NCBI GenBank assembly: GCA_963676445.1 | Contig: OY781100.1 | Span: 1,300,104 to 1,332,103 of the forward strand | From: Anaerovoracaceae bacterium | GTDB taxonomy: Bacteria; Bacillota; Clostridia; Peptostreptococcales; Anaerovoracaceae | Direction: 5' to 3' | Length of the DNA stretch: 32,000 bases | Part shown: in pieces, positions 5,659 through 32,000 of the stretch | Position numbering within the stretch: the stretch's first letter is position 1 | How the letters are laid out: each line of letters begins with the position of its first letter | Notes under the pieces: generated by a model | What the model was told of the DNA's origin: nothing | What the model saw: only the letters and a program-made list of their open reading frames with translations | Database searches by the model: none | Program-made: the position numbers and the translations under genes

Positions 5659-5763
5659 TTAATCAACACTAAGTTCAGTTTTGTACGGTTCTGGTACATT
5701 ATCAATCGTAATGCGCCCCATGTCCAACAAGAACTTGTATAATCTCAACAATCTTTCATCCAT
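5659..5763 (-). CDS. Unlisted 34-aa ORF, XkdX-position small tail-cluster protein (tentative)
   Basis: My own translation: ATG 5763 (3 nt after the stop of 5767..6078, with GGGGGTG upstream) gives MDERLLRLYKFLLDMGRITIDNVPEPYKTELSVD and stop TAA at 5661..5659. Its size and position after the fibre-assembly-like gene match the tiny XkdX-type genes of PBSX-like clusters. Similarity is not verifiable here. Confidence 0.4.
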   Translation of the reverse strand: MDERLLRLYKFLLDMGRITIDNVPEPYKTELSVD

Positions 5764-5766
5764 TTC

Positions 5767-6078
5767 TTACACCCCCAACTGCAAACTTGCAAGATCAGCG
5801 ACAAGCTGTTTCAGTTCTTCGATTTGCTGCTGTGGTGTTTTGGGTGCTTCTGTGCCGACTTCATACCATCCGCGATCAGCATCATATTCAAAGTCTCTTT
5901 CTTCTTCAATTACCCCCTCCGGTAGCGGATTTATTTCCTTATCTTCGAATACCGCTTCTTTAAGGATATTGCCTTCTTCGTCGTATTCAGCAGAATTAAT
6001 TTCAACTGGCTGTTTTTGAGAGTCCCATTCCCCAATATTGATAATCTCTCCATTCAAGATATAGCATTTCTTTATCAT
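5767..6078 (-). CDS. Small acidic tail-fibre-associated protein (assembly/chaperone-like)
   Basis: 103 aa from ATG 6078, which forms an ATGA overlap with the fibre stop. The ORF-track start at 6099 is also possible. C-terminal coiled segment QQQIEELKQLVADLASLQ. Positioned directly after a fibre gene. Confidence 0.55.
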   Translation of the reverse strand: MIKKCYILNGEIINIGEWDSQKQPVEINSAEYDEEGNILKEAVFEDKEINPLPEGVIEEERDFEYDADRGWYEVGTEAPKTPQQQIEELKQLVADLASLQLGV

Positions 6079-6902
6079 AATGAATTTACCGCCTTCCATC
6101 CTGTATTACCAGTTCCAGTTTGCTTAATATATTCCGTCGTATTCGTTCCACCATCGGTACGAAAATATGTCGTTCCAGGGAAGGCTGTTACGACGCCTTC
6201 CGGCGCGCCGGAACCATGAATTTTATCAATTCTCTTATATGTTGAATTGATTACATCATGCAATTGAAGTCTATAATCGTCATACATTCGAAGAACATAT
6301 ATTTCGGAATCATTTTTAACCAATTGCATAACTGCCGCGTTTCCACCACAACCATAACCCGCTTGATATATACTTCCAGAAAACAAACGCTTGGCGATAA
6401 ACGGAACATATACGGTTGTTGTATCAGATCCAATTACAAGCGAAGACGTTAAACTGCCGTTATCCATCGTTACCGATTCACGCCATGCAGTCCAGCCGCT
6501 TGAGGTTCCATTCGTATTTGTTCTAGTGAAAACACGAACGACAGATGTTATAGAAATAAACATTTGAGTTACAACCGTTTCAGCACTCCCTGTCGCTCCA
6601 TCCGTTGTACTTGCTACCCACGGAAATACCAAGAGACTCCCACCGCTGGTTATCGGTGCATTTGTAGTGCCGCTTGAAACGGAATAGAATCCCTCAGTCA
6701 AGATATTATTTAAGTCTCTGCCGTTCACACGTTCAGCATATAACATACTGCTGATTAAGTTGCTAGCTGTGTCAATCTCGTTCATGTGGCTCTTCAGTTC
6801 TTCATCTAGTATATCCCAGTTGGCATTTGTAACCGAAATATCCGGTGGACTATCCTCTAATTCCGATTTTATAAAGCCATAATTTATTGTTGTTGTCGCC
6901 AT
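6075..6902 (-). CDS. Tail fibre / receptor-binding protein with knob-like domain (cassette 2)
   Basis: 275 aa. The N-terminus (TINYGF....D....N.NWD.LD) is shared in pattern with the fibres at 9340..10398 and 22795..23829. DLNNILTEGFY...TNAP...GWTAW resembles pyocin-knob-type domains. The C-terminal G.P.G...A.PG..Y......Y.K.....GW motif is common at phage fibre tips. Confidence 0.7.
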   Translation of the reverse strand: MATTTINYGFIKSELEDSPPDISVTNANWDILDEELKSHMNEIDTASNLISSMLYAERVNGRDLNNILTEGFYSVSSGTTNAPITSGGSLLVFPWVASTTDGATGSAETVVTQMFISITSVVRVFTRTNTNGTSSGWTAWRESVTMDNGSLTSSLVIGSDTTTVYVPFIAKRLFSGSIYQAGYGCGGNAAVMQLVKNDSEIYVLRMYDDYRLQLHDVINSTYKRIDKIHGSGAPEGVVTAFPGTTYFRTDGGTNTTEYIKQTGTGNTGWKAVNSL

Positions 6903-6994
6903 ACCTCATCACTCTCCTTTAAATGATTTGTCAAGAAAAATTAAATCATAAAACTTCTTCAAATCTCACTATGTTCAAACTGACAAAACCTCTA

Positions 6995-7783
6995 TTAAAG
7001 CGCAATATAGTCATTGACAGCCTGCCAGTCATCCAAAGAAGCAACTACTGACCAATCGGTAAAATTGTCCCGAATATCCTGCCATGTTGCAAAATACTTG
7101 ATCACCCCTAATTTAATATGACTTGGAACAAGAGGTCCTAACGCCCTGGCAATATCGGTGTATCGGTAATTTTTCGTACTATCCGGGCTCAATACCTCCA
7201 CTCTTAAAAAACCATGTCCCAATTCAGGATTAAGCGATTCATCCGAACCAAAAAAAGTTATTATGCAATCACTACCGGAGATTGCATTAACAATGTTTTT
7301 AATCGTGGCTTCATTAATCTTACTCCCTTTCTGGTTGAGCGATACGAGATAGCTTTTTCTTTGTTCCAGGGTGCCCAGACCTTTCATGTTTAAAAATTTT
7401 TCAATTCTTATTATCGAATCATTTGAAGCGGAGACAATGAAATTATTCGATTTAATCTTCTCTACCTTGGAGTGCAAATCATCAATATTTGCATTTTCAA
7501 TATGAAAGATTTCCGCAAACTCTTTTGTCTCCGATATAAAATCCGGCACATAGGTTTTAAGTTCGGAAGTCTTTTCAGTTCTAATAATCATATCCAAATA
7601 AGTCTCATATAAGTCGCTAGAACTGTTTAGGATAGTGATTTCGCCGTCTTGACTCACAATCAGCGTCAATAAATAATTACCTGCCACACTTGGAGCCTCA
7701 TCAGGTCTAATCCATGTACCCTCTCCATTATTCTCCAAAGTGTAAGTTATTCCGTTTACGCTGTACTGAATGTAATCAATCAT
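6995..7783 (-). CDS. XkdU-like (DUF2313 / P2 gpI-like) baseplate protein with N-terminal extension (cassette 2)
   Basis: 262 aa with an ATGA overlap onto the upstream baseplate-J gene. The C-terminal half (..LGPLVPSHIKLGVIKY..TW..) parallels the KPAHL.Y.F.YT.W ends of the other two XkdU-like proteins in the window. The gene is markedly AT-rich (a sampled line is about 27% G+C). Confidence 0.6.
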   Translation of the reverse strand: MIDYIQYSVNGITYTLENNGEGTWIRPDEAPSVAGNYLLTLIVSQDGEITILNSSSDLYETYLDMIIRTEKTSELKTYVPDFISETKEFAEIFHIENANIDDLHSKVEKIKSNNFIVSASNDSIIRIEKFLNMKGLGTLEQRKSYLVSLNQKGSKINEATIKNIVNAISGSDCIITFFGSDESLNPELGHGFLRVEVLSPDSTKNYRYTDIARALGPLVPSHIKLGVIKYFATWQDIRDNFTDWSVVASLDDWQAVNDYIAL

Positions 7784-8820
7784 GGTGCCACCACCGTTAA
7801 TTCGATATCTGTTAATACAGGTATTTCATCCCCACTTAATAATATGTCATCCGTTCCAGAGTTCACTGTTAAGCTTCTAAGATCTGCTATAGAGGCACAA
7901 TCCAAAAGAGTGCTTCCGATTCTCATATAACTCACACTATTTTTTACATATGTAATTGATGCCAAATAATCCGCTACTGACTTTGCAGCATCGGTTGCTT
8001 CTGTGTATCCTTCAGCCAACGTGATATCTGCAGCTACCATTATGTTCTTCTGTGTGCCGCCTGTTACAGTAGCTTTACTTCCAATAGGCGCAGCCCCTTT
8101 TCCCAGCCCCGAAACGCCTGGATCTAGATATTCCTGAAATGCTGTTACTAAAGCTGCCTCTGCCGGTAAATACTGCCCATTGGTTATTGCAATTTTAACT
8201 GTATTCCCGCCATTCCAAAGAGGAAATACTTTTGCTGCTCCAATGCCTTTGAATGTGGCTGCCCATTCCAAATATTGAGCCACATTTCCCTCTTGCGAAG
8301 GATTAATTATATAAGCTCTAACGCGATCTCTTAAGGCATCATCCGTTTCTTCATCAGTTCCCGAGATAATAATATCCGCCAACAACGCAGTTACTCCGCT
8401 TACATTATCAATATTTTCAAGAGTACCGCTATAGGCGTTGCCAATCACACCTGGTTGCTCACATTCTGCACTATATACGTTCGTTGATAGGAATTGCTTA
8501 ATGATATAAGTTGTTTCACTCAACCCCCATCTCGTGCCGAGATTAACCGGAGCCGTTGTTTCGATTTTTCTCACTGCTCCAGTTGCGCTTTTTCGAGTTT
8601 TGCCGTAATCTGCAACCTTCTTATCCAGATAGACTCCAACAGCGGTATCCAAATAGAAAAGATCAGCATAATTGTTAAGATTAAAATATGTTTCTGCTAA
8701 TTTATATGCGCAGGGGGCAATGGCATCATAGATAATGCTGCCTTCCCGCTTATCGATATCGGAGTTCACCCTGCTTAGCATATCAGACAGGATGTTTTCA
8801 TAGGTCATTTCCTCAAACAT
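7780..8820 (-). CDS. Baseplate J-like protein (XkdT-like), second copy in module B
   Basis: 346 aa. Roughly 60% identical by eye over the first ~210 aa to the protein of 10951..11970 (MF..TYE..LSDMLSRV.SD.DKREGS.IYDA.APCAY.LA.TY.NLN...). RBS GGGGG before ATG 8820. Confidence 0.85.
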   Translation of the reverse strand: MFEEMTYENILSDMLSRVNSDIDKREGSIIYDAIAPCAYKLAETYFNLNNYADLFYLDTAVGVYLDKKVADYGKTRKSATGAVRKIETTAPVNLGTRWGLSETTYIIKQFLSTNVYSAECEQPGVIGNAYSGTLENIDNVSGVTALLADIIISGTDEETDDALRDRVRAYIINPSQEGNVAQYLEWAATFKGIGAAKVFPLWNGGNTVKIAITNGQYLPAEAALVTAFQEYLDPGVSGLGKGAAPIGSKATVTGGTQKNIMVAADITLAEGYTEATDAAKSVADYLASITYVKNSVSYMRIGSTLLDCASIADLRSLTVNSGTDDILLSGDEIPVLTDIELTVVAP

Positions 8821-8901
8821 AGTGATTACCCCCTTTTTGTATTAGGTATTCTTCTAATCAGCGGTTGTTTGGTTTATACTAACTTGTCGGCTTAGTCAAC
8901 A

Positions 8902-9327
8902 CTAAGCTGATTCTAACTCATTGATTTCTGTTCTCCATGCTTGTCGTTGTGTAATAACGTCAGCATATTCTTCTACTGTTGCCGACCCTTCAGCAATCTT
9001 TATAACTGCATAATCTGTTTCGGCAAGTTTCTGTTTTAATTCTTCAATACGAGAAGCATTTTCAATAACGGTTAATTCAGATCCCTTTTCTTCATCTGTT
9101 CTTTCTGTCTTTACTCCATCCACAAGCTTGTAGTTATAACATCCATTTTCATCTATCAAACCTTTTTCAAGATAGTTCCCTTGTGGATGAGTATATTTGG
9201 GGTCTTCTACACCTTCATCAATCTGCATCCAGCCTGTTAAGTCTTTCGGTGGATACATACCGCCTTCTATTGCAATAATTCTGCTCGCTGTATCCGTCTT
9301 TACATATACAATGTAATTGTCTTCCAT
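8902..9327 (-). CDS. Small tail-fibre-associated protein (assembly/chaperone-like), cassette 1
   Basis: 141 aa with RBS AAGGAGG, 12 nt after the fibre stop. Acidic, with a C-terminal coiled segment (RIEELKQKLAETDYAVIK..). Positioned like XkdW-type genes. Confidence 0.55.
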   Translation of the reverse strand: MEDNYIVYVKTDTASRIIAIEGGMYPPKDLTGWMQIDEGVEDPKYTHPQGNYLEKGLIDENGCYNYKLVDGVKTERTDEEKGSELTVIENASRIEELKQKLAETDYAVIKIAEGSATVEEYADVITQRQAWRTEINELESA

Positions 9328-9339
9328 ACCATTTCCTCC

Positions 9340-10398
9340 TTACAGTTCCGCTGATACAGCAAATACATTAATATTATCGTTACAGGCATAAGGTCTATAT
9401 TGAGTTACACCAGTAACAGTGAAAACAGCATTAAGTCCCGATGGTGTAACACTTACCCATGTTGTTGCCATAGAAGGTATATTGCCAAGTGAAAAATGTG
9501 GGTATTGGAGGACGCTAACAGTAGGTGTAGTTCTCATCTTAACTGGAAATCCAAATGATACCCAAATTCCTGTAGCGCTTTCAGCGAATCCAACACCAAT
9601 CTGCTTTACATCTATGATTTGATAATACCTCTGGCACAACGCCAACTGCTCACCGTAATCTACTGGAGGATCGTTGGCAAGGGTAGATACGGAGCCAAGT
9701 TCGAGTTTCCAGCGGTATATATCAATGTCAATGGAACTTTCCAGTGTATTCCCGCACAGTATTTCAACTCCGAAATTCGTGACATCAACAGCCGGAGTGA
9801 AAGTATACGTCACATACGATTCAATTCCAGGAGTAACTGCTGAAATTAAACCGCGACCGTTGCTACCACTAATGGAACTGTACATTGAATCACATGGTCT
9901 GAGTACTAGGGTTCCAGATCCCGCATTCATCTTGCAATGAAGCGTCAAAGTGTAGGTTTGTCCGGCCCGAAGCATCTTTTCTGTAAACTGTATTATTCTT
10001 TTATAGTTTGCTATTGTATTTGATGTAAAATTAATGAAACCATCAAATACTGTTACAGTGCCCAGCATTATTTTCCAGCGATCAATAGCCTGAGCCCATG
10101 TGACTGTTGAAATATAACTGTCCTGCATTTTCTGATTCACTAATGCGTTTACAAAATCCCAATTATGCAAGAGGTTTCCGTTTGGAGATGCTGTTTTGTC
10201 AAGCTTAGTGCTGACTAAGTCCTCAAGCGCACTATCCCCCGCTGCCCTGGCAGCAGCCTCTGACGTGATGGCATCTGCATTCGCCTTTAGTGCAGAATCA
10301 ATCAATTCATTGTCATTATTAAAGTCTTCTCGTTTTATGTAGTCGTTCCCAAGCCATTGGTTCAGCTCATAATTTATTGTTTTATTTGTGCTTGCCAT
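9340..10398 (-). CDS. Tail fibre / receptor-binding protein (cassette 1)
   Basis: 352 aa. Has the fibre-type N-terminus (INYELNQW...D.N.N...ID) followed by alanine-rich coiled coil. Also contains ..DRW.. and WKLELGSVSTL....Y..QLALCQRYY, a motif I recall as widespread in phage tail-fibre proteins. Confidence 0.75.
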   Translation of the reverse strand: MASTNKTINYELNQWLGNDYIKREDFNNDNELIDSALKANADAITSEAAARAAGDSALEDLVSTKLDKTASPNGNLLHNWDFVNALVNQKMQDSYISTVTWAQAIDRWKIMLGTVTVFDGFINFTSNTIANYKRIIQFTEKMLRAGQTYTLTLHCKMNAGSGTLVLRPCDSMYSSISGSNGRGLISAVTPGIESYVTYTFTPAVDVTNFGVEILCGNTLESSIDIDIYRWKLELGSVSTLANDPPVDYGEQLALCQRYYQIIDVKQIGVGFAESATGIWVSFGFPVKMRTTPTVSVLQYPHFSLGNIPSMATTWVSVTPSGLNAVFTVTGVTQYRPYACNDNINVFAVSAEL

Positions 10399-10949
10399 TA
10401 CGATACCTCCTTGTAAACTTCAAACTCATCCCATGTCAGGTTCATCGCATCCCATTGGCCGCAAGTTTTACCGTAACCTTCAAATTGATTCCAGGTAATC
10501 CAGGTGTATTCAAAGGTATATGTTAAATGCGCGGGTTTGATTTGCTCAATTGTTGAAATAAGATCACTCATGTTTTCCGGAATACCCAACATGCCAACGA
10601 ACTTGATGTTAAAACTATGATTAGGCGGCTCTTCCGTTACTTCAACTTTGCCTTTGGAATAGGCGGCGGCAGTCTCAACGATCATTTGTTTTGTCACCGT
10701 CCCGATCCCGATCGCCTTAGCCTTGATTCGCTCTCTTCTGAATGTGTCACTCTTAGATGTGATCACCGCAAGCCCGAATATTTTCTCATACCTGCTTAAT
10801 AAACTCGACGAAGTAGATGCAAAGCATTCGTTCATCATTTTGCCAAAATCATCATACAATTCGGTGGCCTCTTCATTTATTATGATCTGCAATTCTTCCA
10901 TTGTGGTATTGCCGTCATAAATTGGCGGCAATAAGTCAAGAAAATCCAT
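10398..10949 (-). CDS. XkdU-like (DUF2313 / P2 gpI-like) baseplate protein
   Basis: 183 aa. N-terminal LLPPIYD and C-terminal IEQIKPAHLTYTFEYTWITW, as in the XkdU/YmfQ family. Immediately follows baseplate J. Confidence 0.7.
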   Translation of the reverse strand: MDFLDLLPPIYDGNTTMEELQIIINEEATELYDDFGKMMNECFASTSSSLLSRYEKIFGLAVITSKSDTFRRERIKAKAIGIGTVTKQMIVETAAAYSKGKVEVTEEPPNHSFNIKFVGMLGIPENMSDLISTIEQIKPAHLTYTFEYTWITWNQFEGYGKTCGQWDAMNLTWDEFEVYKEVS

Positions 10950-10950
10950 G

Positions 10951-11970
10951 TCACTCAGCCTCCGTTAGTGATATCATTCCAACAACCGGGATATCGGTAT
11001 CTTCAATGGTGATATTGGCAGTTCCTCCGTTAATTCGCAGCATATCATAATCTTGAACACCTGCCGTATCCAGCAGTAAGCTTCCAACCCTCGCGTAGCT
11101 GATAGAATAAGTAACAAATACGGTGCTCTTAAGGTATTCTTCAACAGAAGCTATAAATTCCGCTTGTACAGCGTTAAAAGTCTGTGATCCATTCAATAAG
11201 ACATTTGCGGAAACATTGATCGTCAGGCCAGAAGGACTGTCCACCTTGACTTCCGCCCCGATGGGCCTAACTGTTTCAATATAAGGAGCTACCGTGTCAG
11301 GTAAAGTTTCGTCAATTGTCATATCGCTGTCAACCACAAGAACTTTAACGGTTCCTGCTCCTCTCCAAAGAGGGATCACCTTTGCTTTTCCAACTCCGGG
11401 TACATCAAGTGCCCATTCTCTATAATTATCGGCATTACCTGATGTGCTAGGGGCTTGCACCCTCATATAGAATCTCTCTCTCAGCTTGCCGTCTGTTTCC
11501 TTTTCGGTACCGGCCGTTATAATATCTGTTAGAACAGCCGATACTCCGTTTACATTGTCTATATTTTCAAGCGTACCGTTATAGCCGTTCCCTATATCTC
11601 CCGGCTGTTCACAAATCGCTCGGTAGACATTGGAAGAGATCAGTTCTGTAACCTTATAGGTGGTATCACTTAAACCCCATCTGGTTCCGATGCTTACAGC
11701 TCCATTTGTTTCAATTTGCCTTATGGCAAAAGTCGCCGCTTTTCTGGTGATTCCGTAATCAGCCACGACCCGGTCAAGATATTCGCCCACTGCCGTATCA
11801 CCAAATACAAGGTCAAGAAAATGATTGAGATTGTAATAGGTCTGAGCAAGCTCGTATGCGCAGGGAGCTAAAGCATCGTAGATCACACTTCCTTCTCTCT
11901 TGTCCACATCGGATTTAACACGACTGAGCATATCACTTAGCAATCCTTCATAAGTTTTATCCGCAAACAT
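10951..11970 (-). CDS. Baseplate J-like protein (XkdT-like), first copy in module B
   Basis: 339 aa. Size, position after the XkdS-like gene and conserved N-terminal region are typical of the Baseplate_J family. Paralogous to 7780..8820 and, more distantly, to 28076..29122. Confidence 0.85.
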   Translation of the reverse strand: MFADKTYEGLLSDMLSRVKSDVDKREGSVIYDALAPCAYELAQTYYNLNHFLDLVFGDTAVGEYLDRVVADYGITRKAATFAIRQIETNGAVSIGTRWGLSDTTYKVTELISSNVYRAICEQPGDIGNGYNGTLENIDNVNGVSAVLTDIITAGTEKETDGKLRERFYMRVQAPSTSGNADNYREWALDVPGVGKAKVIPLWRGAGTVKVLVVDSDMTIDETLPDTVAPYIETVRPIGAEVKVDSPSGLTINVSANVLLNGSQTFNAVQAEFIASVEEYLKSTVFVTYSISYARVGSLLLDTAGVQDYDMLRINGGTANITIEDTDIPVVGMISLTEAE

Positions 11971-12368
11971 CAGACATTCACCTCTTTTGTTATCGTAATT
12001 TCTCCGTAAATGCTGACAACCTCGAAGGTACAGCGCATCTGATCCCCTGTCACTTCATAATTAAAATTGTCTACACTCTCAATTCGGTCGTCCCGAAGCA
12101 AGCACTCCTGAATTCTTCTTTTCAATTCGACTTTTACATAAGCAGCGTCCTTACCGATCAGGCTGTCCAGCTCGATCCCATAAGAGAAGCTATAAATCTG
12201 ATATTCGTACTTTTCCGTATTAAGCACCTTATATATCGCCTGCTTTAATGCGTCCAGTCCGTCCACATAGCCCTGAATATTCGCCTCTTCCAGTTTATAG
12301 GTCCTGCTTGTACCGATGGTTTCATGAATCGTTATATCCTCTGGGATTAATGCCGCAGGTGTTGTCAT
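11970..12368 (-). CDS. XkdS-like (DUF2634, gp25/W-like) baseplate protein
   Basis: 132 aa. Sits between the XkdR-like and baseplate-J genes with overlapping stops/starts. Size and order match PBSX xkdS. Confidence 0.6.
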   Translation of the reverse strand: MTTPAALIPEDITIHETIGTSRTYKLEEANIQGYVDGLDALKQAIYKVLNTEKYEYQIYSFSYGIELDSLIGKDAAYVKVELKRRIQECLLRDDRIESVDNFNYEVTGDQMRCTFEVVSIYGEITITKEVNV

Positions 12369-13544: not shown

Positions 13545-14213
13545 CTACTCAGGTATGGTCAAAACCTGACCAGGGTAAATCAGAGAAGGATTCTTGATTT
13601 TATCCTTATTTGCGTTGTATATTTTAGTATATTTAGATCCATTACCGTATTGTACCTTCGCAATCGCCCATAACGTATCCCCGCTCACAACCGTGTATGT
13701 TCCAGAGTTCTTGGGATTAGTCTCTTCAGTAGCAGCGTTAACTTCCGGAACAATATGCAGTACAGAATCCACTAAAGTCAGCTGCTGCTTTTTTCCGTAA
13801 GGCTTATATTCAAGCAGGGAAAGCGATACGTATTTATCACCCTCTTCTCCAGCCCGTTCCGTTATATCCAAGTCCTTAATCAGCACCAACGTATTAATGT
13901 CATCACCAATACCATTTGTAGCAATAAAACGGACCGGGGTAAGCTTCTTGCGCCATCTTTCGAATTTTTTCAAATAATAGTCTGCATCTTTAAATTGATT
14001 GGGCGTTTCCACATAGCGATAGGGTTTTTTAGGAAGTTCACAGTCGAATGAATACTCTTTTAATTCCATTCTAGTCGGAACTGCAATCTGATCCAGACCC
14101 AGCACTTCATATTTCTCCACCGAAAGAGAACTTTTCACTTTTATTTCATCCGGGTTAACAGGCAGCCGGTAGGTTCTGTTTTTATAATCGAAGAAGATCG
14201 CATAATTACTCAT
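13545..14213 (-). CDS. LysM-domain tail protein (XkdP-like)
   Basis: 222 aa from ATG 14213 (RBS GGAGAGGGGG). The ORF-track start at 14240 would overlap the tape-measure end. C-terminal LysM: YTVVSGDTLWAIAKVQYGNGSKYTKIYNANKDKIKNPSLIYPGQVLTIP. Confidence 0.85.
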   Translation of the reverse strand: MSNYAIFFDYKNRTYRLPVNPDEIKVKSSLSVEKYEVLGLDQIAVPTRMELKEYSFDCELPKKPYRYVETPNQFKDADYYLKKFERWRKKLTPVRFIATNGIGDDINTLVLIKDLDITERAGEEGDKYVSLSLLEYKPYGKKQQLTLVDSVLHIVPEVNAATEETNPKNSGTYTVVSGDTLWAIAKVQYGNGSKYTKIYNANKDKIKNPSLIYPGQVLTIPE

Positions 14214-14214
14214 C

Positions 14215-15936
14215 CTAAACCCCCTCTCCGGCAGTAGCAATCTGCTCCCTCAGAATTCTTTGAATTCGGCCTGCCACCTTATCCGCATCTGCCTCCTGAT
14301 GAATATCTCCAAATGACACTTGAATATTTGGCGCCACAGTAGCGGTGCTGAATTTATTGATGTAATCCCGTTCAGCAATATCACGCAGATACTGGATATC
14401 TTCTTCCGCCATGTCGACTGCAAGGTTTCCGTTCGCACCTGTCCCTTGAACTGAAATAGGATTATTGGGAGTGCCAAGGTCGTCTTTACTTGGAATTCCA
14501 GTAAAAGCAGTAGCATCAAACCCCTCAGTCATTCCGCCTAATTTATTATTCATGTTGGTATAATTATCGCTTCCCTTTTGAGCTCCTTTTTTATAAGCAT
14601 CAGAATAGCTTTTCAGTTCTTTGTATTCTTTCCCTTCTGTCTTGCCCTGATAGTAATCCAGGATTTTAATATCACTTCCAGTTATTTTATTTATTACGGA
14701 GACGACTTTATTAATGCCGTCAATAATGCCATTAAACAATCCGCTGATAAACTTATCAATCCACACTCCGATATTTGATATTGCCACAGGAATGTTTTCG
14801 AGCCAGGTGGTAAAGACACCGATCGCACCACCAACAAAACTAAAAATATCTTGTAATGAAACTCCAAGCTTCCCTAAGAGATTAATAACTATTACAATAA
14901 CTGCAACGATACAAATGATCGTCCAATTTGCTACGATAAAAGCAGCGGCAGCAGTCCATGCAGCAGTAGCGACAACCCATAAATTTGCAATCATTGCTGC
15001 AAGCAACACCCCGCCTATCGTTTCGAGAATAGGCGCTATATAGTCTAAGATGCCGACTATCCAATTCAATACATTGCCGACTGTATAAATTCCAGTTATA
15101 ATCACCGCCAGAAATTTTTGAAAGCCACCCGAATTAATAATCTTACTTACTCCTTCAATTACACCACCGAATGCTTGAAGTGCTGCATTCTTAATACGCT
15201 GCCAAATATCGTTAAAGGTCATAGGCATATTGAAAAATGCATCATTAATATTTGCTGATGCTGCAAACATCGATTTTTTGAGAATATCAGCTGTAAGCGT
15301 TCCTTGTTCTGCCATCTTTCTTAGACCATCTGCAGATTTGCCTGTAAAATCTTCCATGGCTTTCAACATCATTGGCGCAGTTGATGTAATCGTATCAAAG
15401 TCTCCTTCTTGAATCGTTCCCGATCCCATAGCCCCGATCACTTGATCCATTCCAGCCGACTGGGTTTTCGCATCTGTGCCACCCAGTTTCAAAGATTTTT
15501 GAGTTAATTCAGTAAAGGACAAAATTTCATTATTTGATCCAAAGGTATCCCCCGCAGCGGATGCAAGATCAGCAAAAGTATTGACCATATCGGAATAAGA
15601 GCTTCTGGATCTATTGGCAGCAGCAAATACATTATTCTGAAGCTCTGCCTGTGTCCCTAGTTCATTATTGACTGCCTTTAATCTCGTCTGTAAACGCACA
15701 TAATTATCAGCTATCTCCATTCCTCGTTTGACCTTTTCCATATCAAAAAATTTACCAAACCCGCCGAATGCCGATTTTGCTTGTTCTGCTGTGCTATTCA
15801 GTTTTCGATTAAATGTATCTACTTCGCCGTATGCTTTTTTAACCGTTGCCGCTGCTTTATCGGCAAATTTCGATACCGCTTCAAATGAACCGGAAGAGTT
15901 CCCCAGCAGCGTCAATGAAGCTGTCAATGTACTCAT
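14215..15936 (-). CDS. Tail tape-measure protein (XkdO-like), module B
   Basis: 574 aa from ATG 15936 (RBS GGGAGGAAAAGGTG). The track start GTG 16050 is an upstream extension in the same frame. It has helical N-terminal regions, a hydrophobic core of about 90 aa (FLAVIITGIY...INLLGKLGV), and lies between the chaperone and LysM genes. Confidence 0.85.
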   Translation of the reverse strand: MSTLTASLTLLGNSSGSFEAVSKFADKAAATVKKAYGEVDTFNRKLNSTAEQAKSAFGGFGKFFDMEKVKRGMEIADNYVRLQTRLKAVNNELGTQAELQNNVFAAANRSRSSYSDMVNTFADLASAAGDTFGSNNEILSFTELTQKSLKLGGTDAKTQSAGMDQVIGAMGSGTIQEGDFDTITSTAPMMLKAMEDFTGKSADGLRKMAEQGTLTADILKKSMFAASANINDAFFNMPMTFNDIWQRIKNAALQAFGGVIEGVSKIINSGGFQKFLAVIITGIYTVGNVLNWIVGILDYIAPILETIGGVLLAAMIANLWVVATAAWTAAAAFIVANWTIICIVAVIVIVINLLGKLGVSLQDIFSFVGGAIGVFTTWLENIPVAISNIGVWIDKFISGLFNGIIDGINKVVSVINKITGSDIKILDYYQGKTEGKEYKELKSYSDAYKKGAQKGSDNYTNMNNKLGGMTEGFDATAFTGIPSKDDLGTPNNPISVQGTGANGNLAVDMAEEDIQYLRDIAERDYINKFSTATVAPNIQVSFGDIHQEADADKVAGRIQRILREQIATAGEGV

Positions 15937-16133
15937 CACCTTTTCCTCCCTTTCTTCGGTATATTTTTCGGAGCATGCTTCTTTTCTTCCTCTACGCGTA
16001 TTATGATACTCCCGTAAATAAACGCTTTTTCCTCGTGGCTCATGGAGCACAGTTGAGAAGGAAGGATATGCAATTTTTGAAGGGCAAAGTGCGCAAGATT
16101 GAAATCCGCATCACCCTGCCTTATTCGTTTTTT
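15936..16133 (-). other. -1 frame extension of the tail assembly chaperone (predicted frameshift product, G/GT-type)
   Basis: My own translation: after a slip on A_AAA_AAC, the -1 frame is open for 63 codons (RIRQGDADFNLAHF...KNIPKKGRKR). It stops at TGA 15938..15936, overlapping the tape-measure ATG. Confidence 0.65.
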
Positions 16134-18552: not shown

Positions 18553-18694
18553 GTGTTATCACCTTCTTTACAAGTTCCGTTTAATACGAAACAACTTATG
18601 TCTAATCTAATGGCTAAGGATATGACATTCGAGGCGCCTCCTCATTAGCAACTAGTAACTATTATTCATCAATGTTTACTGCTGCTCTATCTAC

Positions 18695-22795: not shown

Positions 22796-23829
22796 TACGC
22801 ATCCCCCCTCACCGTGAATACTACAGGAATATTTATCGTAGGTTTTGTACCCCATGCTCTCAACGTTACAGAATTCGTGGTCTGAGAGTAGCCAATAATA
22901 TTAGCAGCTTGCAGCGCTTGTAGTTGCGCCTGCGTAATTGAAGTTGCAGGCGTCAGATCCTGGTTGCTGACAGCGGTAACACCCGGGACAATTACTGTAT
23001 ATATATAAGGTGCCGATGATCCTGACCATGACGACGACGATAATGTTACAGATACAGATTTGGATTTCGTGGCAACAGCTACTCCGTTTGCCTGTACCGT
23101 ACCAGTCCCTTTAGAGATTAGATTTAACGATACATTTGTGTCTCCACCTGAGGCCGAGATCGACGGAGCACTTCCTGTAACTGCATTTTTTACAGTAATC
23201 TCATTGACTGCCGATGATACAACCGATGAAGCTTTAATAAGTTCATTGCCATTAGCATCTGCAATATAGCCTCCACTGGCAATCTTGGGAGCGGTTAAAC
23301 TTTTATTTGAAAGAGTTTCCGATTTAGAAGCCTGCGACGCATCAGCACCTTGGCTTAACAATTGAAAATAGCTTTCATCATAGATAACCTGAATAATTTT
23401 TCCTGCCGTTATATCGCCGGTTAGCAAGGCGGTCGAGGTTTCACGAACTATATTTACAGCACCAAGCCCATTGACGTTCAGACTAGCCACAGTAGAGTTC
23501 GCAGTTGGGCATTTCACATAGAGCGGAACCCCTATAAGCTGAGAGTATGCTGTTATACCCTCAATAGTAATGGAATATGCATCGGTTGATCCCGAATCAA
23601 GCGCATAATAAATATGATGACTGTAGTCTGATTTATGTGCTTCAATTGATTCTGAATTTTCTATGTCTGCCTCTGCCCGCGCTACTGCCTCCGAGGCAAT
23701 CCCATCCGCATTAACTTTCAATACCTGATCGACCGTGTCAAAATTATCATTCAGATCTTCAATGTCAATCACATCTGTGGATTGCGGCTTATTTAAGTCA
23801 TAATTCGATGTAGTAAGCATAGTTATCAC
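22795..23829 (-). CDS. Tail fibre protein (module A, short fibre)
   Basis: 344 aa. Fibre-type N-terminus (SNYDLNKPQSTDVIDIEDLNDNFDTVD), then a coiled-coil-like alanine-rich stretch. ATGA overlap with the upstream XkdU-like gene. Confidence 0.7.
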   Translation of the reverse strand: MITMLTTSNYDLNKPQSTDVIDIEDLNDNFDTVDQVLKVNADGIASEAVARAEADIENSESIEAHKSDYSHHIYYALDSGSTDAYSITIEGITAYSQLIGVPLYVKCPTANSTVASLNVNGLGAVNIVRETSTALLTGDITAGKIIQVIYDESYFQLLSQGADASQASKSETLSNKSLTAPKIASGGYIADANGNELIKASSVVSSAVNEITVKNAVTGSAPSISASGGDTNVSLNLISKGTGTVQANGVAVATKSKSVSVTLSSSSWSGSSAPYIYTVIVPGVTAVSNQDLTPATSITQAQLQALQAANIIGYSQTTNSVTLRAWGTKPTINIPVVFTVRGDA

Positions 23830-24449
23830 TCTCCTTCATAAATTTTCAATGCTGCCCAAGTTTTATGTCCACTGTTTGCATCACCCCAGGTCATACTGTC
23901 TAAGGCACCCCAGGTTGTGTAGGTATACTTAAAACGATAAGCCAAATGCGCCGGTTTAATTTCCTCTATAGCGTTTATCAGTCCTGTCATATTCTGCGGT
24001 ATCCCTTTTATGCCTACAAACTGTACTACAAAGATGTACTCTTCCGGATATTCGAGTATATTTACCTCACCGCCGGAAAAGGCAACTGCCATATTTTGTA
24101 TCATACTAATCGTAGTCGTTCCAGCGCCCCTCATTTTCGCTTTTAAAATTTCTCTGCGAATTGCATAGGATTTTGTTTTATCCGTCGTCAGTCCGAATAC
24201 CTGCTCCAAGAGATCCAATCCCCATGTGGCGGAAGATACAAAGCACTGATTGATTAAGTCTGGAAGACCTCCTGCTAATTCCCCCGTGCTGTAACCTAAG
24301 GCTGTTTGTAGCTCAACTACCTCATTACTGTTTCGGTAATAGTCCGGCAAATATGACATAAGATCGGCATATGCCTCATCAGGGCCAGAAGCCTCCGGTT
24401 CAGGCCCATATGCAGCTGTTCCATATAAACTGTCTGCGTATTTTGACAT
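23826..24449 (-). CDS. XkdU-like (DUF2313 / P2 gpI-like) baseplate protein, module A
   Basis: 207 aa with RBS GAGGGGAGG. C-terminal IEEIKPAHLAYRFKYTYTTW closely parallels 10398..10949. Confidence 0.7.
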   Translation of the reverse strand: MSKYADSLYGTAAYGPEPEASGPDEAYADLMSYLPDYYRNSNEVVELQTALGYSTGELAGGLPDLINQCFVSSATWGLDLLEQVFGLTTDKTKSYAIRREILKAKMRGAGTTTISMIQNMAVAFSGGEVNILEYPEEYIFVVQFVGIKGIPQNMTGLINAIEEIKPAHLAYRFKYTYTTWGALDSMTWGDANSGHKTWAALKIYEGE

Positions 24450-28074: not shown

Positions 28075-28075
28075 A

Positions 28076-29122
28076 TCACACCTCCAGATCGACTGTGCCG
28101 AATACAGGTACTTCCTCGTCACCCAATCCGATATTGGACGTATCGCTATTTAGCCGCAAATCATCATAATCTAAAACCCCGTCTGTACCCAGCAAAAGGG
28201 TTCCTATTTTAGCTACGCTTATATAAGTTGCATCAAAGGCAATCTCTTTAAAATAATCCGTTATAAACTGAGTAAAGGTGTCCGTTACCGTCTGTAATAT
28301 ATACCCGGAGGCCAATGTAACAGAAGCGGTAATATCAATGTTCTTTGCTGTACCTGAAACAACCGTTACTGTGGCTCCTATCGGCCTCATTTCTTCAATA
28401 TATTTTTCTGTTGCAGTAACCAAGCTTTCCGCCACCGGCTGCTTATCGCTGTCCACAATAACAACTTTTACGGTACCGTTACCCTTCCAAAGTGGAAATA
28501 CTTTGGCTCCTCCTACGCCGTCCACCGCCAGAGCCCATTGTCTGTAGTTTGCTATGTTTCCCGATGTCGCCGGTTTTTGCAGATAATCATAAAGTCTTGC
28601 GATTAGTGCAGCGTCGGTTTCCTCATCCGCTCCCCCTGTTGCAGCCGCATTGGTTACTGACGTAAGCCCGTTTATCGTTATCACCTGATAAAGGATCGTT
28701 CCTGCATCGACATTATACTCATCACCGATCTCTGCTGCCGTTGCGCTTACCGAAACAGTACCCTCTGAAATGGTTACGGCCTTGTCGGTTTCAAATTGCA
28801 GACCATCCGAAGTTAAAAATACTTTACCTGCGGCGATTTGCGTATTATTTGCGCCTGTGAAGGTTAACATAGTCGTTGCCTTCGACCCCGATTTCCGCGT
28901 GATGCCGTACTCCGCACACCTCTTGTCAATATATTCTCCAGAAGTCTCATCAACATAGGCGATGGGAACAATCGCGTCAATGGCTTGATAATATTTCCAC
29001 ATTTCATAGGCCACAGCACTGATCATATCGTTTGTGTAGCTTCCTTCACTGGTATTGAGTTCACTGCTCAGTTGACTAATGATGTTATTTTTAATCATTT
29101 CTACCGTATAGTCCTCATACAT
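28076..29122 (-). CDS. Baseplate J-like protein (XkdT-like), module A
   Basis: 348 aa. Follows the XkdS-like gene with an 8-nt overlap. Shares the family pattern (..EGS...D...A.A.E.......ID......D...G..ID....EYGITRK...A...) with the two module-B copies but is much more distant from them. Confidence 0.85.
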   Translation of the reverse strand: MYEDYTVEMIKNNIISQLSSELNTSEGSYTNDMISAVAYEMWKYYQAIDAIVPIAYVDETSGEYIDKRCAEYGITRKSGSKATTMLTFTGANNTQIAAGKVFLTSDGLQFETDKAVTISEGTVSVSATAAEIGDEYNVDAGTILYQVITINGLTSVTNAAATGGADEETDAALIARLYDYLQKPATSGNIANYRQWALAVDGVGGAKVFPLWKGNGTVKVVIVDSDKQPVAESLVTATEKYIEEMRPIGATVTVVSGTAKNIDITASVTLASGYILQTVTDTFTQFITDYFKEIAFDATYISVAKIGTLLLGTDGVLDYDDLRLNSDTSNIGLGDEEVPVFGTVDLEV

Positions 29123-29537
29123 TCACTTCCACCTCCCCGTAAACTGTATTCAGCTTCGCATTCACGTTCAATATCCCGTCGGAGAAAGATATCGCCGTAT
29201 CAGAAACACTTGTAATATACGGGCAGACAAGCAGGCATTCCTCTACATAACGCGCTGCCTCCGACTGCTTTAACTCCTCTGAAAAAGGTTGTCCAATCAA
29301 TGAATCCACTTCATTTCCATAATCCCACGTATAGATTTCATGACGGAATCTGGGTGTATGAAGTGCCTTCCACGCCCATACAAGTACTGCTTCTTTCCCA
29401 GAAACAACAACTGGTGATCCGTTTTTATAGACCGGGATATTATTTTCAAAATCCCATTTTGCTTCTTTAAAAATGGAGAGTTCCATCCCATCCTCCGCCA
29501 CCTGCGGTTGAATGATCGGAAAAAGTGTCGCATTCAT
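29115..29537 (-). CDS. XkdS-like (DUF2634, gp25/W-like) baseplate protein, module A
   Basis: 140 aa from ATG 29537, an ATGA overlap with the upstream stop. The track start at 29555 is also possible. Order and size match xkdS. Confidence 0.6.
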   Translation of the reverse strand: MNATLFPIIQPQVAEDGMELSIFKEAKWDFENNIPVYKNGSPVVVSGKEAVLVWAWKALHTPRFRHEIYTWDYGNEVDSLIGQPFSEELKQSEAARYVEECLLVCPYITSVSDTAISFSDGILNVNAKLNTVYGEVEVNV

Positions 29538-29791
29538 ACGTCCACCACCTTGCAAATGATTATATATCGCTGCTCCTCTTCAATGGGAATCAGAAGCAAC
29601 GTTTCTCCTGCATTAAATTCATACAAACTGCTGTTTTTTAAAAGAGAATCTTTATCCTGAATGGTCTGAGAAACATTAACCGTTAATGGTGATGCAGTAA
29701 TGACCTCTCCCAACCGCATAAATGTCGGTATTTGTTTTTTTGCTTCTGTCCTTATGCCCCTTACCAGGGAAACGAAAGGATTATCTTCCAT
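29534..29791 (-). CDS. XkdR-like (DUF2577) small baseplate protein, module A
   Basis: 85 aa from ATG 29791 (AGGAG about 9 nt upstream). ATG 29809 (ATGA overlap) and 29797 are alternative starts. Order and size match xkdR. Confidence 0.55.
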   Translation of the reverse strand: MEDNPFVSLVRGIRTEAKKQIPTFMRLGEVITASPLTVNVSQTIQDKDSLLKNSSLYEFNAGETLLLIPIEEEQRYIIICKVVDV

Positions 29792-29805
29792 TCTCATCAC
29801 TCCTC

Positions 29806-30813
29806 TCATCCCGCTGTTTTCGAGCCGTTTGCGTTAACAAGCTTACCGGCGTCTTTTTCATCCATCAAGTTTTGAAAATTGAGAATCAGTTTATTATAAT
29901 ACTGGCCGTTTTTCCAGGTATGAACATCACCGTCGATATAAAAAAGGCCGTATAAACCTGTATATGGTTCTTGAACGACAACAGCGCCACCTGCCATATT
30001 TGCTGAATTTCCAAGGTTTTCAACGGTAATTTTCTGTAAAACACCATTGTCTTCCAGTATTTTGTTTGCCTCAGCCGTTGCATCCTCATTATCAGCCTGC
30101 CTCAGATAACTTTGCAAACGTCCATAAAGCGCAATCGATTCGCTGTTATTCGGCGTTCCAACCAGCTTGTCCTTTGAATTATAGATGCTGACTTGATTGA
30201 TCATATTTTCAATGCTTTCCGTTGTCGATGCCGACATAAGGTTGCTCCCCGCCGAGATGACCATCGTCTCGTAGGGGACGCCTTTTTCAATGACATCAAG
30301 TTCAAGACCACGAAATCGGATCTGGTATTTCTTCCCTGTGCTGTTTGAGGCTATCGTATAAGCAGTTTGAATCATACGGTAAAGATCAACGCCAATAAAG
30401 TTTCTGTTGACTTTTACCCCTGTTGCCGCCAGATTGCCCACTGTTATTCCAAAATCAGCGCAGATTAATTTTGTGATCGCTTCAGGTGTCCAATTCTTAA
30501 ATTTATATACGGCTTCATTTCTTTTTAAATAAATTCCATAGTCGAAACAGGTGATATTAGTCGTGCTGCTGTCTGTACTTTTATGACGGTTAAAGATCAC
30601 TCCGCTGAACAGGACACGATCCTCTTGTTTCAGCGTAACTCCGTTTCCGAGTTCACAGTTTACGACAGGAATGGTGCCATCGACAGGTGACGACAGGATT
30701 CCAAATTCCAAAGTCCTTGTACATTGCTGGTAATCACCTGAAAGCGTAATAGAAGGTACGAGCTGAGTAATGTCAGTTGTACCATTTTTACTTGTAATTG
30801 ACAGTGTTATCAT
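29806..30813 (-). CDS. XkdQ-like baseplate hub protein, module A
   Basis: 335 aa from ATG 30813 (AGGAG about 10 nt upstream). The track start GTG 30822 lies too close to that RBS. Follows the LysM protein. Confidence 0.7.
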   Translation of the reverse strand: MITLSITSKNGTTDITQLVPSITLSGDYQQCTRTLEFGILSSPVDGTIPVVNCELGNGVTLKQEDRVLFSGVIFNRHKSTDSSTTNITCFDYGIYLKRNEAVYKFKNWTPEAITKLICADFGITVGNLAATGVKVNRNFIGVDLYRMIQTAYTIASNSTGKKYQIRFRGLELDVIEKGVPYETMVISAGSNLMSASTTESIENMINQVSIYNSKDKLVGTPNNSESIALYGRLQSYLRQADNEDATAEANKILEDNGVLQKITVENLGNSANMAGGAVVVQEPYTGLYGLFYIDGDVHTWKNGQYYNKLILNFQNLMDEKDAGKLVNANGSKTAG

Positions 30814-30826
30814 AACGAGCACACTC

Positions 30827-31468
30827 CTATGTAAATAAACTTTTATCTGGAATTTTTACAACCTGTCCCGGATAGATAAGATTGGCATTTTTGATTCCGT
30901 TGTAATCTGCCAGCTTGGCGTATAAGGATGAATTGCCGTACATGTCACGACAAATAGCACTAAGCGTATCACCAGATTTTACAGTATAGGTTTTCGGTTT
31001 TGCTGATGCCGAATCGGTGCTTCTTGCATTGTTTTGTGTTCCTGTAGAAGGGCTCGTCACAGTTGCGAGCGTTCTGTATTTTCTCAGGGAAATGGTCGCA
31101 TACACATCCTTCGTTCCGTCCTTCTCACCATAGGAGATATCCTCGATCAGGACCGGCACATTCACCATCGTATCGGAGACGATGAAACGCAAAACTTTTC
31201 TTGCATCGCACCATGCCTCAAGGGCCTGAATGTATTTATATGGATCGGAATAAATGAGATTATGTACAAACGAATAATTTTGAGCGGGGAACATACAGTC
31301 AATTTTAAAAGAGCACAAGGTACCGTAACCGGCAAGATTTACATCTCCCAGTGTATGGATATTGATCGTCTCTATTTTAATGCCATGGGACACATTGAAA
31401 CTGCCCGGTGTGACAGGAAGAACAATTTCCGTGTTGTCAGCCGGATCTCTGAATATAAATTTACGCAA
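30827..31468 (-). CDS. LysM-domain tail protein (XkdP-like), module A
   Basis: 213 aa with a TTG start at 31468, supported by GGGAGGGG with a 6-nt spacer. C-terminal LysM: YTVKSGDTLSAICRDMYGNSSLYAKLADYNGIKNANLIYPGQVVKIP. Confidence 0.85.
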   Translation of the reverse strand: MRKFIFRDPADNTEIVLPVTPGSFNVSHGIKIETINIHTLGDVNLAGYGTLCSFKIDCMFPAQNYSFVHNLIYSDPYKYIQALEAWCDARKVLRFIVSDTMVNVPVLIEDISYGEKDGTKDVYATISLRKYRTLATVTSPSTGTQNNARSTDSASAKPKTYTVKSGDTLSAICRDMYGNSSLYAKLADYNGIKNANLIYPGQVVKIPDKSLFT

Positions 31469-31485
31469 ATTCGACCCCTCCCATC

Positions 31486-32000
31486 TTATGAAGCCATGAC
31501 CATACGGGCCTTCTCAATTTCACCGAACAATGCTCTTGCAATCTTATTGATATCCGCCTCTTCTCTTACAGTAAAATTATTTCCTGTAATGGTAACGCCC
31601 GACCCACTTCCGTAGCCGCGATTTTCACTTGCGGTAAGCACCCGCTCTCCTTCATGGAGCAGTGCGGGGAAATTGTTGTAAGGTACGTAGCCTAGGCCGT
31701 AAGCGTGTGCTTTAGACGACGATGTCAATTTGCCTGTTGAAGTATTTTCCTTATACGGAATGCTGTAACCTCCGTACGTTGGATAAAACTGAGCCATTGG
31801 ATTGTTCTGCACTGATGCCATTCCTTTGGTCAGTTCATTTTTTATCTCATATACATTTTCCCAGCCAGCTTTGGAAATTTCTGCTGACTTCTGCAAGTTT
31901 CCAATTAAAGCCTCATTCGAATCCTGTTCTATCTGTGCAGGCTCACTACCGGCATAAACATTTGTTGCAAAAGCTTCTGTAGCTTCAAGAAGTTCCTGCA
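31486..32000 (-). CDS. Tail tape-measure protein, C-terminal part (5' end outside the window), module A
   Basis: The frame stays open from the window edge (..QELLEATEAFATNVYAGSEPAQIEQD..) through the listed 136-aa ORF. The C-terminal ..HAYGLGYVPYNNFPALLHEGERVLTA.. motif is typical of tape-measure C-termini. It lies directly upstream of the LysM gene. Confidence 0.75.
   Translation of the reverse strand, partial: QELLEATEAFATNVYAGSEPAQIEQDSNEALIGNLQKSAEISKAGWENVYEIKNELTKGMASVQNNPMAQFYPTYGGYSIPYKENTSTGKLTSSSKAHAYGLGYVPYNNFPALLHEGERVLTASENRGYGSGSGVTITGNNFTVREEADINKIARALFGEIEKARMVMAS

Follow-up and report, generated by a model that had tools for sequence, protein, structure and literature searches.

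The 32,000-nucleotide (nt) stretch of Anaerovoracaceae bacterium contig OY781100.1 analyzed here (the window) covers most of a chromosomal locus of ~35 kb, which by its gene content is headless and holds two contractile tail modules (A and B), with one regulator block in front and one lysis block behind. The locus is probably a Gram-positive counterpart of the tandem R-type tailocin clusters with shared lysis, a reading predicted from genes alone, which an earlier note on this DNA had raised as a possible Firmicute equivalent and which survived every test run. The genes of both modules, of the insert between them and of the lysis block are all encoded on the (-) strand, in the order module A, four-gene insert, module B, lysis block, a small open reading frame (ORF) and a CotH gene; the gene calls were based on Pfam scans (Table 1).

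Two tail gene series in the same order and on the same strand had been described in the earlier note, and the Pfam scans confirmed them, with the fibre gene of A located between the baseplate J and Gp48 genes. For module B, the series listed there was present, but the collar, sheath, tube and chaperone genes had been missed, as well as a second J, Gp48 and fibre set. Since the window ends inside the tape measure gene of A, the upstream context was taken from a sister strain (locus L001, on the 3.6-Mb contig ERZ21831104:ctg97500l), which encodes an identical LysM protein of module A, is 99% identical in nucleotide sequence to window positions 26063-32000, and is likewise arranged as A, insert and B, the last with two J sets. 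Upstream of its tape measure gene, the sister strain has genes for a chaperone, a tube, a 353-amino-acid (aa) sheath, a collar, a 198-aa protein with a weak head-completion match, and a 98-aa protein matching the head-tail adaptor Ad1 (phrog_40, 3.9e-14). The upstream extension that had been suggested as a check thus provided A with a collar, sheath, tube, chaperone and tape measure protein of its own, and the full contractile tail gene set of an R-type tailocin is found for both modules, for B inside the window and for A with the distal part in the window and the proximal part in the sister strain.

No terminase, portal or capsid genes were found in the 6 kb upstream of A in the sister strain, which contain regulators and then the DinB and SRAP genes, nor at the locus as a whole (L001 upstream and the window downstream, and likewise in the related loci L055 and L059), where the Ad1-like and head-completion-like genes are the only relics of this kind; replication genes are absent from the element as well. 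The block upstream of the A tail genes includes a terminator, an early operon and a divergent Xre-type repressor, followed by SRAP and DinB. The early operon encodes a Cro-like helix-turn-helix (HTH) protein, a phrog_1558 protein, two small Cys-rich proteins and a 141-aa sigma-70 region-4-like protein. At the other end, the only lysis set lies downstream of B, as previously noted, and consists of an M23 peptidase, a holin and a 109-aa membrane protein. The locus therefore has its own regulators (repressor, Cro-like HTH and sigma region-4-like protein) and its own lysis cassette, and its divergent tail modules are adjacent on one strand between the two.

The orthologous proteins of A and B are only 22-38% identical, which rules out a recent duplication and agrees with the shared architecture and low sequence similarity reported before. 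All ORFs are intact, and between the window and the sister strain the ratio of non-synonymous to synonymous substitution rates (dN/dS) was 0.14 for the A genes and 0.12 for the B genes, both J/Gp48 sets of B included; the frameshifted or decayed genes that would have indicated the simple adjacency of two prophages were not seen, and both modules are maintained under purifying selection. Nucleotide similarity between the two strains is lost only at the fibre tips (9285-10194 and 24482-26063), the Gly-rich gene and the insert (18593-22788), and for the tip of the first B fibre (9285-10194) the sister strain has no counterpart at the nucleotide level. Such a pattern of breakdown is the one expected for receptor-binding diversification.

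In the comparison with relatives called for earlier, the double layout was found again in at least five other genomes or contigs at species level, as A-then-B or as B-then-A. In Clostridium aminobutyricum DSM 2634, the J, Gp48 and fibre genes of the first module run straight into a B-type collar and sheath, with an amidase at the end, and Anaerovorax odorimutans DSM 5092 has the same tandem layout. L003 has a Gp48-like gene upstream of the B collar. L055/L058 start with a repressor, U_87b, U_61 and sig141, followed by A and then by B with two J sets, while L059/L060 have an HTH repressor, the phrog_1558 protein, B with two J sets, A, the holin and the 109-aa protein; L057 also has B before A, and L053 has a single B-type module behind the same repressor/HTH/phrog_1558 set. 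L059/L060 and L055 share the chromosomal site Pth-Mfd-PrsA. Module order varies, yet the regulators come first wherever the start of the locus is visible and the lysis genes last wherever its end is visible. No integrase or lysis remnant, either of which would indicate the simple adjacency of two prophages, was found between the modules in the window, C. aminobutyricum or A. odorimutans (att sites were not searched for); in A. odorimutans, nine of the ten ORFs between the sheath initiator of the first module and the B collar were scanned, with no match to lysis or integrase families. The upstream modules of DSM 2634 and DSM 5092 are more distant from the A of the window (J 37% and Gp48 27-43% identity), and in neither strain were two J sets or the insert genes demonstrated. 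Large non-fibre ORFs lie between the modules in both: A. odorimutans has one for a DUF5050 beta-propeller protein of 876 aa, and C. aminobutyricum one for a 941-aa protein (L039:4757-7387; L054:6284-9109) and another for a Laminin_G_3 protein. A metagenome scan with the A sheath returned mostly 33%-identical relatives, as well as four closer ones (60-67%) whose contigs were short or truncated; it gave no additional tandem loci.

Module A is, from its protein matches, of the diffocin type. Its sheath aligns over the full length with diffocin CD1363 (E 1.8e-86), and its J protein and hub match CD1371 (8.3e-62) and CD1368 (1.2e-55), respectively. The C-terminal hydrolase domain of the diffocin hub is lacking, as the A hub (338 aa) aligns to CD1368 residues 2-322 only, and the B hub has 312 aa. 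In B, the closest solved relatives of the sheath are DSY3957 and Lin1278, with a weaker match to CD1363 (1.9e-34), no solved relative was found for the hub, and the proteins match diffocin more weakly or not at all; against sequenced phages in phage databases, the B sheath is at most 41% identical. A survey of B-type sheaths fetched 50 genome loci, and the 40 species-level loci with at least 6 kb upstream of the sheath were classified. In about 18 of these, terS, terL, portal, scaffold and capsid genes immediately precede the tail genes (Pfam-confirmed in cluster representatives), which makes them complete prophages, and about 20 were headless, with regulators adjoining the collar gene. This near-even division makes B a second, independent domesticated tail lineage, and the headless loci suggest a widespread, undescribed tailocin family. 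A small sigma region-4-like gene was observed 1-2.5 kb upstream in headless B-type loci, whose genomes carry the labels Mobilitalea, Anaerotaenia, Sedimentibacter, Lachnoclostridium and other Clostridia.

The locus contains three specificity sets, one in A and two in B, since B holds two sets of J, Gp48, fibre and chaperone genes. In the diffocin baseplate triplex, two J proteins (Tri2) combine with one Gp48-like protein (Tri1), which holds the fibre (PMC11329794). The two J proteins of B are 50% identical overall, with 55-75% in the first ~160 aa and 23-45% in the remainder. Similarly, the J protein of L053 (L053:16259-17275), which has homologues of the A-type fibre and Gp48 downstream, has an N-terminal half 65-95% identical to the first J of B and a C-terminal half 57-70% identical to the J of A in the window, and the same pattern of halves was found between the A-type J proteins of the window and L055. 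From these three comparisons, the N-terminal half follows the tail core and the C-terminal half follows the Tri1/fibre cassette. The J proteins are thus chimeric in sequence, with the N-terminal ~160-200 aa co-varying with the core, the rest co-varying with the Gp48/fibre cassette, and a swap point inside J at about residues 160-200. We infer that either J, Gp48 and fibre set of B can be fitted to the B core. The 34-aa ORF at the end of the second B set could not be confirmed as XkdX. In module A, residues 17-576 of the long fibre are 98.6% identical to a 607-aa protein of the sister strain. Residues 601-829 form an internal duplication, being ~81% identical to residues 338-560 of that 607-aa fibre, a stretch also present in the window fibre at residues 354-576, and the C-terminal domain (residues 860-1223, ~360 aa) had no match among the sister strain fibre proteins compared. 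At this position, the sister strain has overlapping 607-aa and 181-aa ORFs instead. A homologue of the second fibre-like protein of A (344 aa), 66% identical, follows the second B set in L068.

The insert between the modules is a four-gene block of low GC content (0.34-0.36), which encodes a ParB/sulfiredoxin-fold protein, a radical SAM/SPASM protein, a cytidylyltransferase-like protein and a NeuB-family synthase-like protein. For the first of these, Foldseek gave marginal ParB-N/sulfiredoxin matches over ~90 residues (best E 2e-3, none ≤0.001), and the NeuB-like gene is rare in phage databases. The same four genes occur as a unit in L068 (10001-12994), where they follow the second fibre set and immediately precede the M23 and holin genes, together with homologues of the 344-aa and 92-aa proteins of A, and also in 92-125 kb IMG/VR phage contigs, after the tail fibre genes; in L061, the contig studied in detail (5105-8837), they lie ~4 kb upstream of the endolysin genes. 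This recurrence next to fibres, and between fibres and lysis genes, ruled out the insert as a prophage junction. The sister strain has a diverged version of the cassette, replaced together with the Gly-rich gene relative to the window. The insert is a fibre-linked accessory sugar cassette, with fibre glycosylation and modification of the producer surface as the two candidate roles.

The regulator block of the window species (L001:2269-4651) is a composite of two sets when compared with L053:7162-9219 and L055:6472-7940. One set (HTHrep, HTH64 and U_131, the phrog_1558 protein) is as found before the single B module of L053, and in L059, and the other (U_87b, U_61 and sig141, the sigma region-4-like protein) is as found before the A-first locus L055, so that it looks as if the A unit was inserted between the regulators and the structural genes of B. 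The U_131 regulator was not matched by a hidden Markov model of the sigma-like proteins from other headless B-type loci, and nothing was found for it in Pfam or NCBIfam.

In L053, L059 and L060, the tail genes are preceded by a leader with an A-tract, a near-consensus promoter (TTTACA, 17 nt, TAATAT or TAGTAT), and a hairpin with a T-run ~55 nt downstream of this sigmaA-like promoter. Its distal part is conserved (CTCCGAAAYGAGGTTAAACT...GCTCAGCGCTGAG) and has small hairpins, then a strong ribosome-binding site (RBS) and a four-codon mini-ORF (MTYP, MTYT or MSYP). It is located at L053:9243-9500, L059:8992-9566 (two copies) and L060:8094-8432, and a remnant is present in the window (18643-18614), where the mini-ORF of the 142-nt junction before B is homologous to the distal leader of L053, L059 and L060. 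Rfam scans of the window and the leader-bearing loci gave no family, and RNAalifold on eight leader copies gave a single 3-bp helix with one compensatory CG/GC pair, so the leader structure is described by eye. The distal half also occurs ~100 nt upstream of the scaffold genes in full B-type prophages (L008:4916, L019:6631, L024:6474 and L029:6560), because of which the leader of the tailocins, with its mini-ORF, resembles a scar left when the genes from scaffold to head-tail connector were deleted. L059/L060 have the leader twice before B and once more between B and A, and this repetition before each module is direct sequence evidence that the two would respond to one signal there. A related unit of promoter and hairpin precedes A in L001 and L055; no shared promoter motif was found between the pre-A region (L001) and the pre-B region of the window.

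In the window, neither a promoter nor a terminator was recognized in the junction before B, and B would therefore have to be transcribed from upstream. The read-through from A and the insert into B that the earlier note considered plausible is supported in part, with no terminator-like site on the (-) strand within 17333-22900, the junction included, but the lysis genes are preceded by a terminator-like hairpin with a T-run. Because of this hairpin, and of those between the modules of L058 and L060, plain read-through would be insufficient, and antitermination or an internal or separate lysis promoter would be needed. The order of promoter and then terminator beside a small regulator gene resembles, by inference only, the Q/pR'/tR' arrangement of lambda.

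Here it is proposed that stress would lift the repressor, that the early operon would then make the late activator or activators, and that late transcription would pass through A, the sugar cassette and B into the lysis genes. Two structurally orthogonal particles would form side by side, without cross-assembly given the low identity between the A and B parts, and the B core would mount either triplex (J and Gp48) with its fibre set, giving up to three killing specificities from the locus. By the rule that relates tail length to the tape measure protein, ~524 aa and 573 aa would predict tails of roughly 80 nm and 86 nm. The holin and M23 endolysin would lyse the producer, and the released particles would kill related strains. 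From the comparative loci, tail modules and cassettes of the J C-terminal half, Gp48 and fibres would have been stacked and swapped over evolution within a fixed frame that runs from regulators to lysis genes. A wider and clearly more tentative reading, possible rather than probable, is that of a 'tailocin rack' in the Anaerovoracaceae, in which tail modules of the two lineages and plug-in specificity cassettes are stacked and reordered in this fixed frame, each module being leader-driven, with antitermination. The plug-in cassette may comprise the C-terminal half of J, Tri1, the fibres and the nonulosonic-acid-type sugar cassette, which may glycosylate the fibres or alter the receptor of the producer for self-immunity. 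The leader, with its promoter and the intrinsic terminator ~55 nt on, may derive from the pre-scaffold leader of the ancestral phage, and processive antitermination of the lambda Q kind may allow one signal to read 30 kb or more past internal terminators into the lysis genes.

Several points weigh against the tandem tailocin reading. The double tailocin is known here from its genes, and its particles, killing and expression are predictions. The upstream part of A is that of a sister strain, which differs from the window in the fibre and insert regions, and head genes may be present elsewhere in the genome, the locus and its flanks being what was covered. The promoter part of the leader is gone from the junction before B, which may leave B poorly expressed; the hairpin before the lysis genes and the hairpin/T-run between the modules of L058 and L060 may also interrupt transcription; and neither hub has the hydrolase domain that diffocin uses to cross peptidoglycan.

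An unlikely alternative is that two independent defective prophages or tailocins came to lie head to tail by chance, each with its own signals and one of them perhaps silent or decaying; a fusion of two decayed prophages had been among the earlier note's options. The different lineages of A and B, the regulator block that resembles two joined sets, the leader or hairpin retained by the second module in L058 and L060, and the ~50% share of complete prophages among B-type loci with sufficient sequence upstream are all consistent with it. However, in the tandem loci inspected the modules are not separated by an integrase, a second repressor or a second lysis cassette (att sites were not searched for), the ORFs of both modules are intact, with dN/dS of 0.12-0.14, the pre-B region of the window lacks the promoter part of the leader, and module order is inverted at the same chromosomal site while the regulators still come first and the lysis genes last. 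It is less probable still, at a low probability, that the locus is a PBSX-like defective phage or an active myophage with alternative tails, whose head and packaging genes lie elsewhere or just outside the inspected DNA. The gene order XkdK-M-N-O-P-Q-R-S-T-U-V of PBSX-like and Firmicute XkdK-type myophage tails matches the order found here. In favour of this alternative, module A retains the Ad1 relic (phrog_40, 3.9e-14) and the weak head-completion-like protein, and in other genera the tail genes of close relatives of the B type come right after terminase, portal, scaffold and capsid genes. PBSX retains terminase, portal and capsid genes and packages DNA, whereas head and packaging genes are absent from this element: the 6 kb upstream of A in the sister strain hold regulators and then DinB/SRAP only, a small ORF and CotH follow the lysis genes, L055 and L059 abut Pth-Mfd-PrsA, and the prophage pre-scaffold leader is here fused straight to the tail genes in a way resembling a deletion scar. 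The headless upstream region, the intact ORFs and the recurrence in other species thus argue against both the fused prophages and the piggy-backed second tail set that had also been offered. Slightly more improbable again is that one or both modules are extracellular contractile injection systems with protein cargo (PVC/Afp-like), for which the large non-fibre ORFs between the modules of A. odorimutans and C. aminobutyricum could speak; Pfam scans of all window ORFs found no AAA+ ATPase, Afp-type genes or cargo toxins, and all structural genes belong to the XkdK/diffocin type of phage genes, a tape measure protein is present, and the release system is one of holin and endolysin.

The tandem tailocin reading has its closest architectural parallel in Pseudomonas, where tandem R-tailocins of distinct ancestry share a single lysis cassette (PMC4684702). 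As in the Rp1-Rp4 clusters, the double R-tailocin of P. chlororaphis and the R/F pyocins, divergent tailocins are combined here with one regulator region and one lysis cassette (PMC4684702, PMC12090994), and Pseudomonas clusters also include one tailocin with more than one fibre set, as in module B. In contrast to Pseudomonas, the host is a Gram-positive anaerobe, the ancestry is of the XkdK/diffocin type instead of P2- or Mu-like, lysis involves an M23 peptidase and a Phage_holin_1 holin, the extra specificity sets bring their own baseplate J and Gp48 beyond the fibres, and module order is inverted between related genomes. No homology to the Pseudomonas Rp/R-pyocin modules was found, the best solved relatives being diffocin, DSY3957 and Lin1278; the resemblance is one of architecture, not descent. 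Diffocin (Clostridioides difficile CD1362-CD1374; PDB 8v3t and related entries), described as the only well-documented Gram-positive R-type tailocin (PMC10538166), is likewise headless and shares its parts list with A (collar, 353-aa sheath, tube, tape measure protein, LysM, hub, spike, initiator, Tri2 and Tri1). However, it is described as a single module, whereas A is linked with a second tail from a different lineage; the diffocin hub has a C-terminal transglycosylase/endopeptidase domain (PMC11329794) absent from the A and B hubs; and the diffocin tape measure protein CD1366 has at least 817 aa compared with 524 aa in A, with different fibres as well. Several receptor-binding sets per tail core widen the killing spectrum of Kosakonicin and of R-tailocin 2 of P. 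chlororaphis (PMC6629978, PMC12090994), although here each set has its own triplex proteins and the swap point is inside baseplate J.

One tailocin per genome and one fibre per tailocin have been reviewed as the rule, with multi-tailocin and multi-fibre clusters as a trait of Gram-negative rhizosphere bacteria (PMC12090994), and full-text literature searches found no case of a tandem Gram-positive tailocin. Such a layout had so far been described for Pseudomonas only, and what would be new here is the tandem double R-tailocin in a Gram-positive host, with stacked specificity cassettes. It suggests that the Pseudomonas solution, of diverged modules with shared regulation and lysis, arose independently in anaerobic Gram-positives, where the divergence of the modules probably avoids cross-assembly. 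Cultured carriers of the tandem two-module locus are available (C. aminobutyricum DSM 2634 and A. odorimutans DSM 5092), and the loci offer a natural map of recombination between core and specificity cassettes, with a breakpoint inside baseplate J that could be useful for engineering diffocin-like antibacterials. They also provide a candidate for a novel leader of late genes, together with the sugar cassette linked to the fibres.

Table 1. Features of the two-module tail locus in the window, listed from module A to the lysis cassette.
Feature	Position	Strand	Evidence and remarks
Module A (distal half of second tail)	32000-21678	-	Pfam; proximal half in sister strain
A tape measure protein, C-terminal 170 aa; gene runs past window edge	31489..32000	-	97.6% identical to residues 355-524 of the 524-aa L001 protein; no Pfam match for the fragment
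A LysM tube-tail protein (XkdP/CD1367-like)	30827..31468	-	PF01476 2.2e-12; identical protein on ERZ21831104
A baseplate hub (YqbQ/XkdQ), hub domain alone	29806..30822	-	PF24032 6.6e-56; CD1368 residues 2-322 of 581, E 1.2e-55
A spike-like protein (DUF2577/XkdR)	29534..29809	-	PF10844 7.9e-9
A sheath initiator (XkdS/gp25-like)	29115..29555	-	PF10934 1.9e-31
A baseplate J (triplex Tri2)	28076..29122	-	PF04865 4.5e-71; diffocin CD1371 E 8.3e-62
A long tail fibre, 1207-1223 aa	24451..28122	-	PHROG tail-fibre families
A Gp48/XkdU-like protein (triplex Tri1, fibre adaptor)	23826..24449	-	PF10076 1.3e-29
A second fibre-like protein, 344 aa	22795..23829	-	phrog_4900 tail protein 1.7e-7
A Gly-rich fibre or fibre-assembly protein	21920..22855	-	PF21722 1e-10; phrog_863 tail fibre assembly
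A small conserved ORF, 92 aa	21678..21956	-	40%-identical homologue at same position in L068; no family found
Insert gene 1, ParB/sulfiredoxin-fold protein, 229 aa	20980..21669	-	Invariant EGxHR motif in alignment; AlphaFold2 pLDDT 79
Insert gene 2, radical SAM/SPASM	20165..20983	-	PF13186 1.1e-11; radical SAM maturase-like NCBIfam matches below cut-off
Insert gene 3, cytidylyltransferase-like (PseF/KdsB-like)	19501..20262	-	PF02348 2.8e-5; TIGR03584 7e-10, below cut-off
Insert gene 4, NeuB-family nonulosonic acid synthase-like, without SAF domain	18695..19510	-	PF03102 2.3e-68; TIGR03569 1e-68, below equivalog cut-off
A/insert-B junction, 142 nt	18553..18694	-	Retains RBS 18643-18637 and mini-ORF ATG TCA TAT CCT TAG 18628-18614
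Module B, complete contractile tail set	18552-5659	-	Pfam
B tail terminator/collar	18136..18552	-	PF20765 7.8e-20
B tail sheath, 348 aa	17071..18117	-	PF04984, PF17482, PF22671; PDB 3hxl E 1e-79; CD1363 just 1.9e-34
B tail tube	16579..17055	-	PF09393 1.2e-36
B tail assembly chaperone (XkdN-like)	16121..16525	-	PF08890 9.9e-34
B tape measure protein	14215..16050	-	PF20155 3.8e-40; 573 aa from ATG at 15936, 611 aa from GTG at 16050; 573 aa in sister strain call
B LysM tube-tail protein	13545..14240	-	PF01476 5.9e-13
B baseplate hub (YqbQ), 312 aa	12595..13533	-	PF24032 1.7e-96
B spike-like protein, 77 aa	12365..12598	-	Weak PF10844 0.0045; position kept in all B-type loci
B sheath initiator	11970..12368	-	PF10934 1.4e-32
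B specificity set 1	8902..11970	-	Baseplate J 11970-10951, Gp48 10949-10398, fibre 10398-9340, chaperone-like 9327-8902
B specificity set 2	5659..8820	-	J 8820-7780, Gp48-like 7783-6995, fibre 6902-6075, 110-aa ORF 6099-5767, 34-aa ORF 5763-5659
Terminator-like hairpin with T7, between B and M23 gene	5516..5533	-	Precedes the lysis cassette
Sole lysis cassette	4171..5477	-	M23 peptidase 5477-4734, PF01551 8.4e-19; holin 4717-4505, PF04531 1.4e-14; 109-aa membrane protein 4500-4171, phrog_4105

The ends of other loci are similar to that of the window, L060 (B-then-A) ending with the same holin and 109-aa protein and L068 with the M23 peptidase, holin and 109-aa protein. The L059 contig (ERZ21878172:ctg8689l) has its Mfd, LysM and hub genes broken into pieces (1644-5086 and 13799-15430), which probably corresponds to long-read assembly frameshifts and not to real decay. 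Additionally, a promoter-like site (5726-5698) is found inside the 34-aa ORF that ends the second B set. Downstream of the lysis cassette, an AT-rich region (2918-4170) includes a 71-aa ORF with a strong RBS (3959-3744, (-) strand) and a GC-rich hairpin (~3716-3690), and is followed by the gene for an 878-aa CotH-kinase-domain protein (281-2917).

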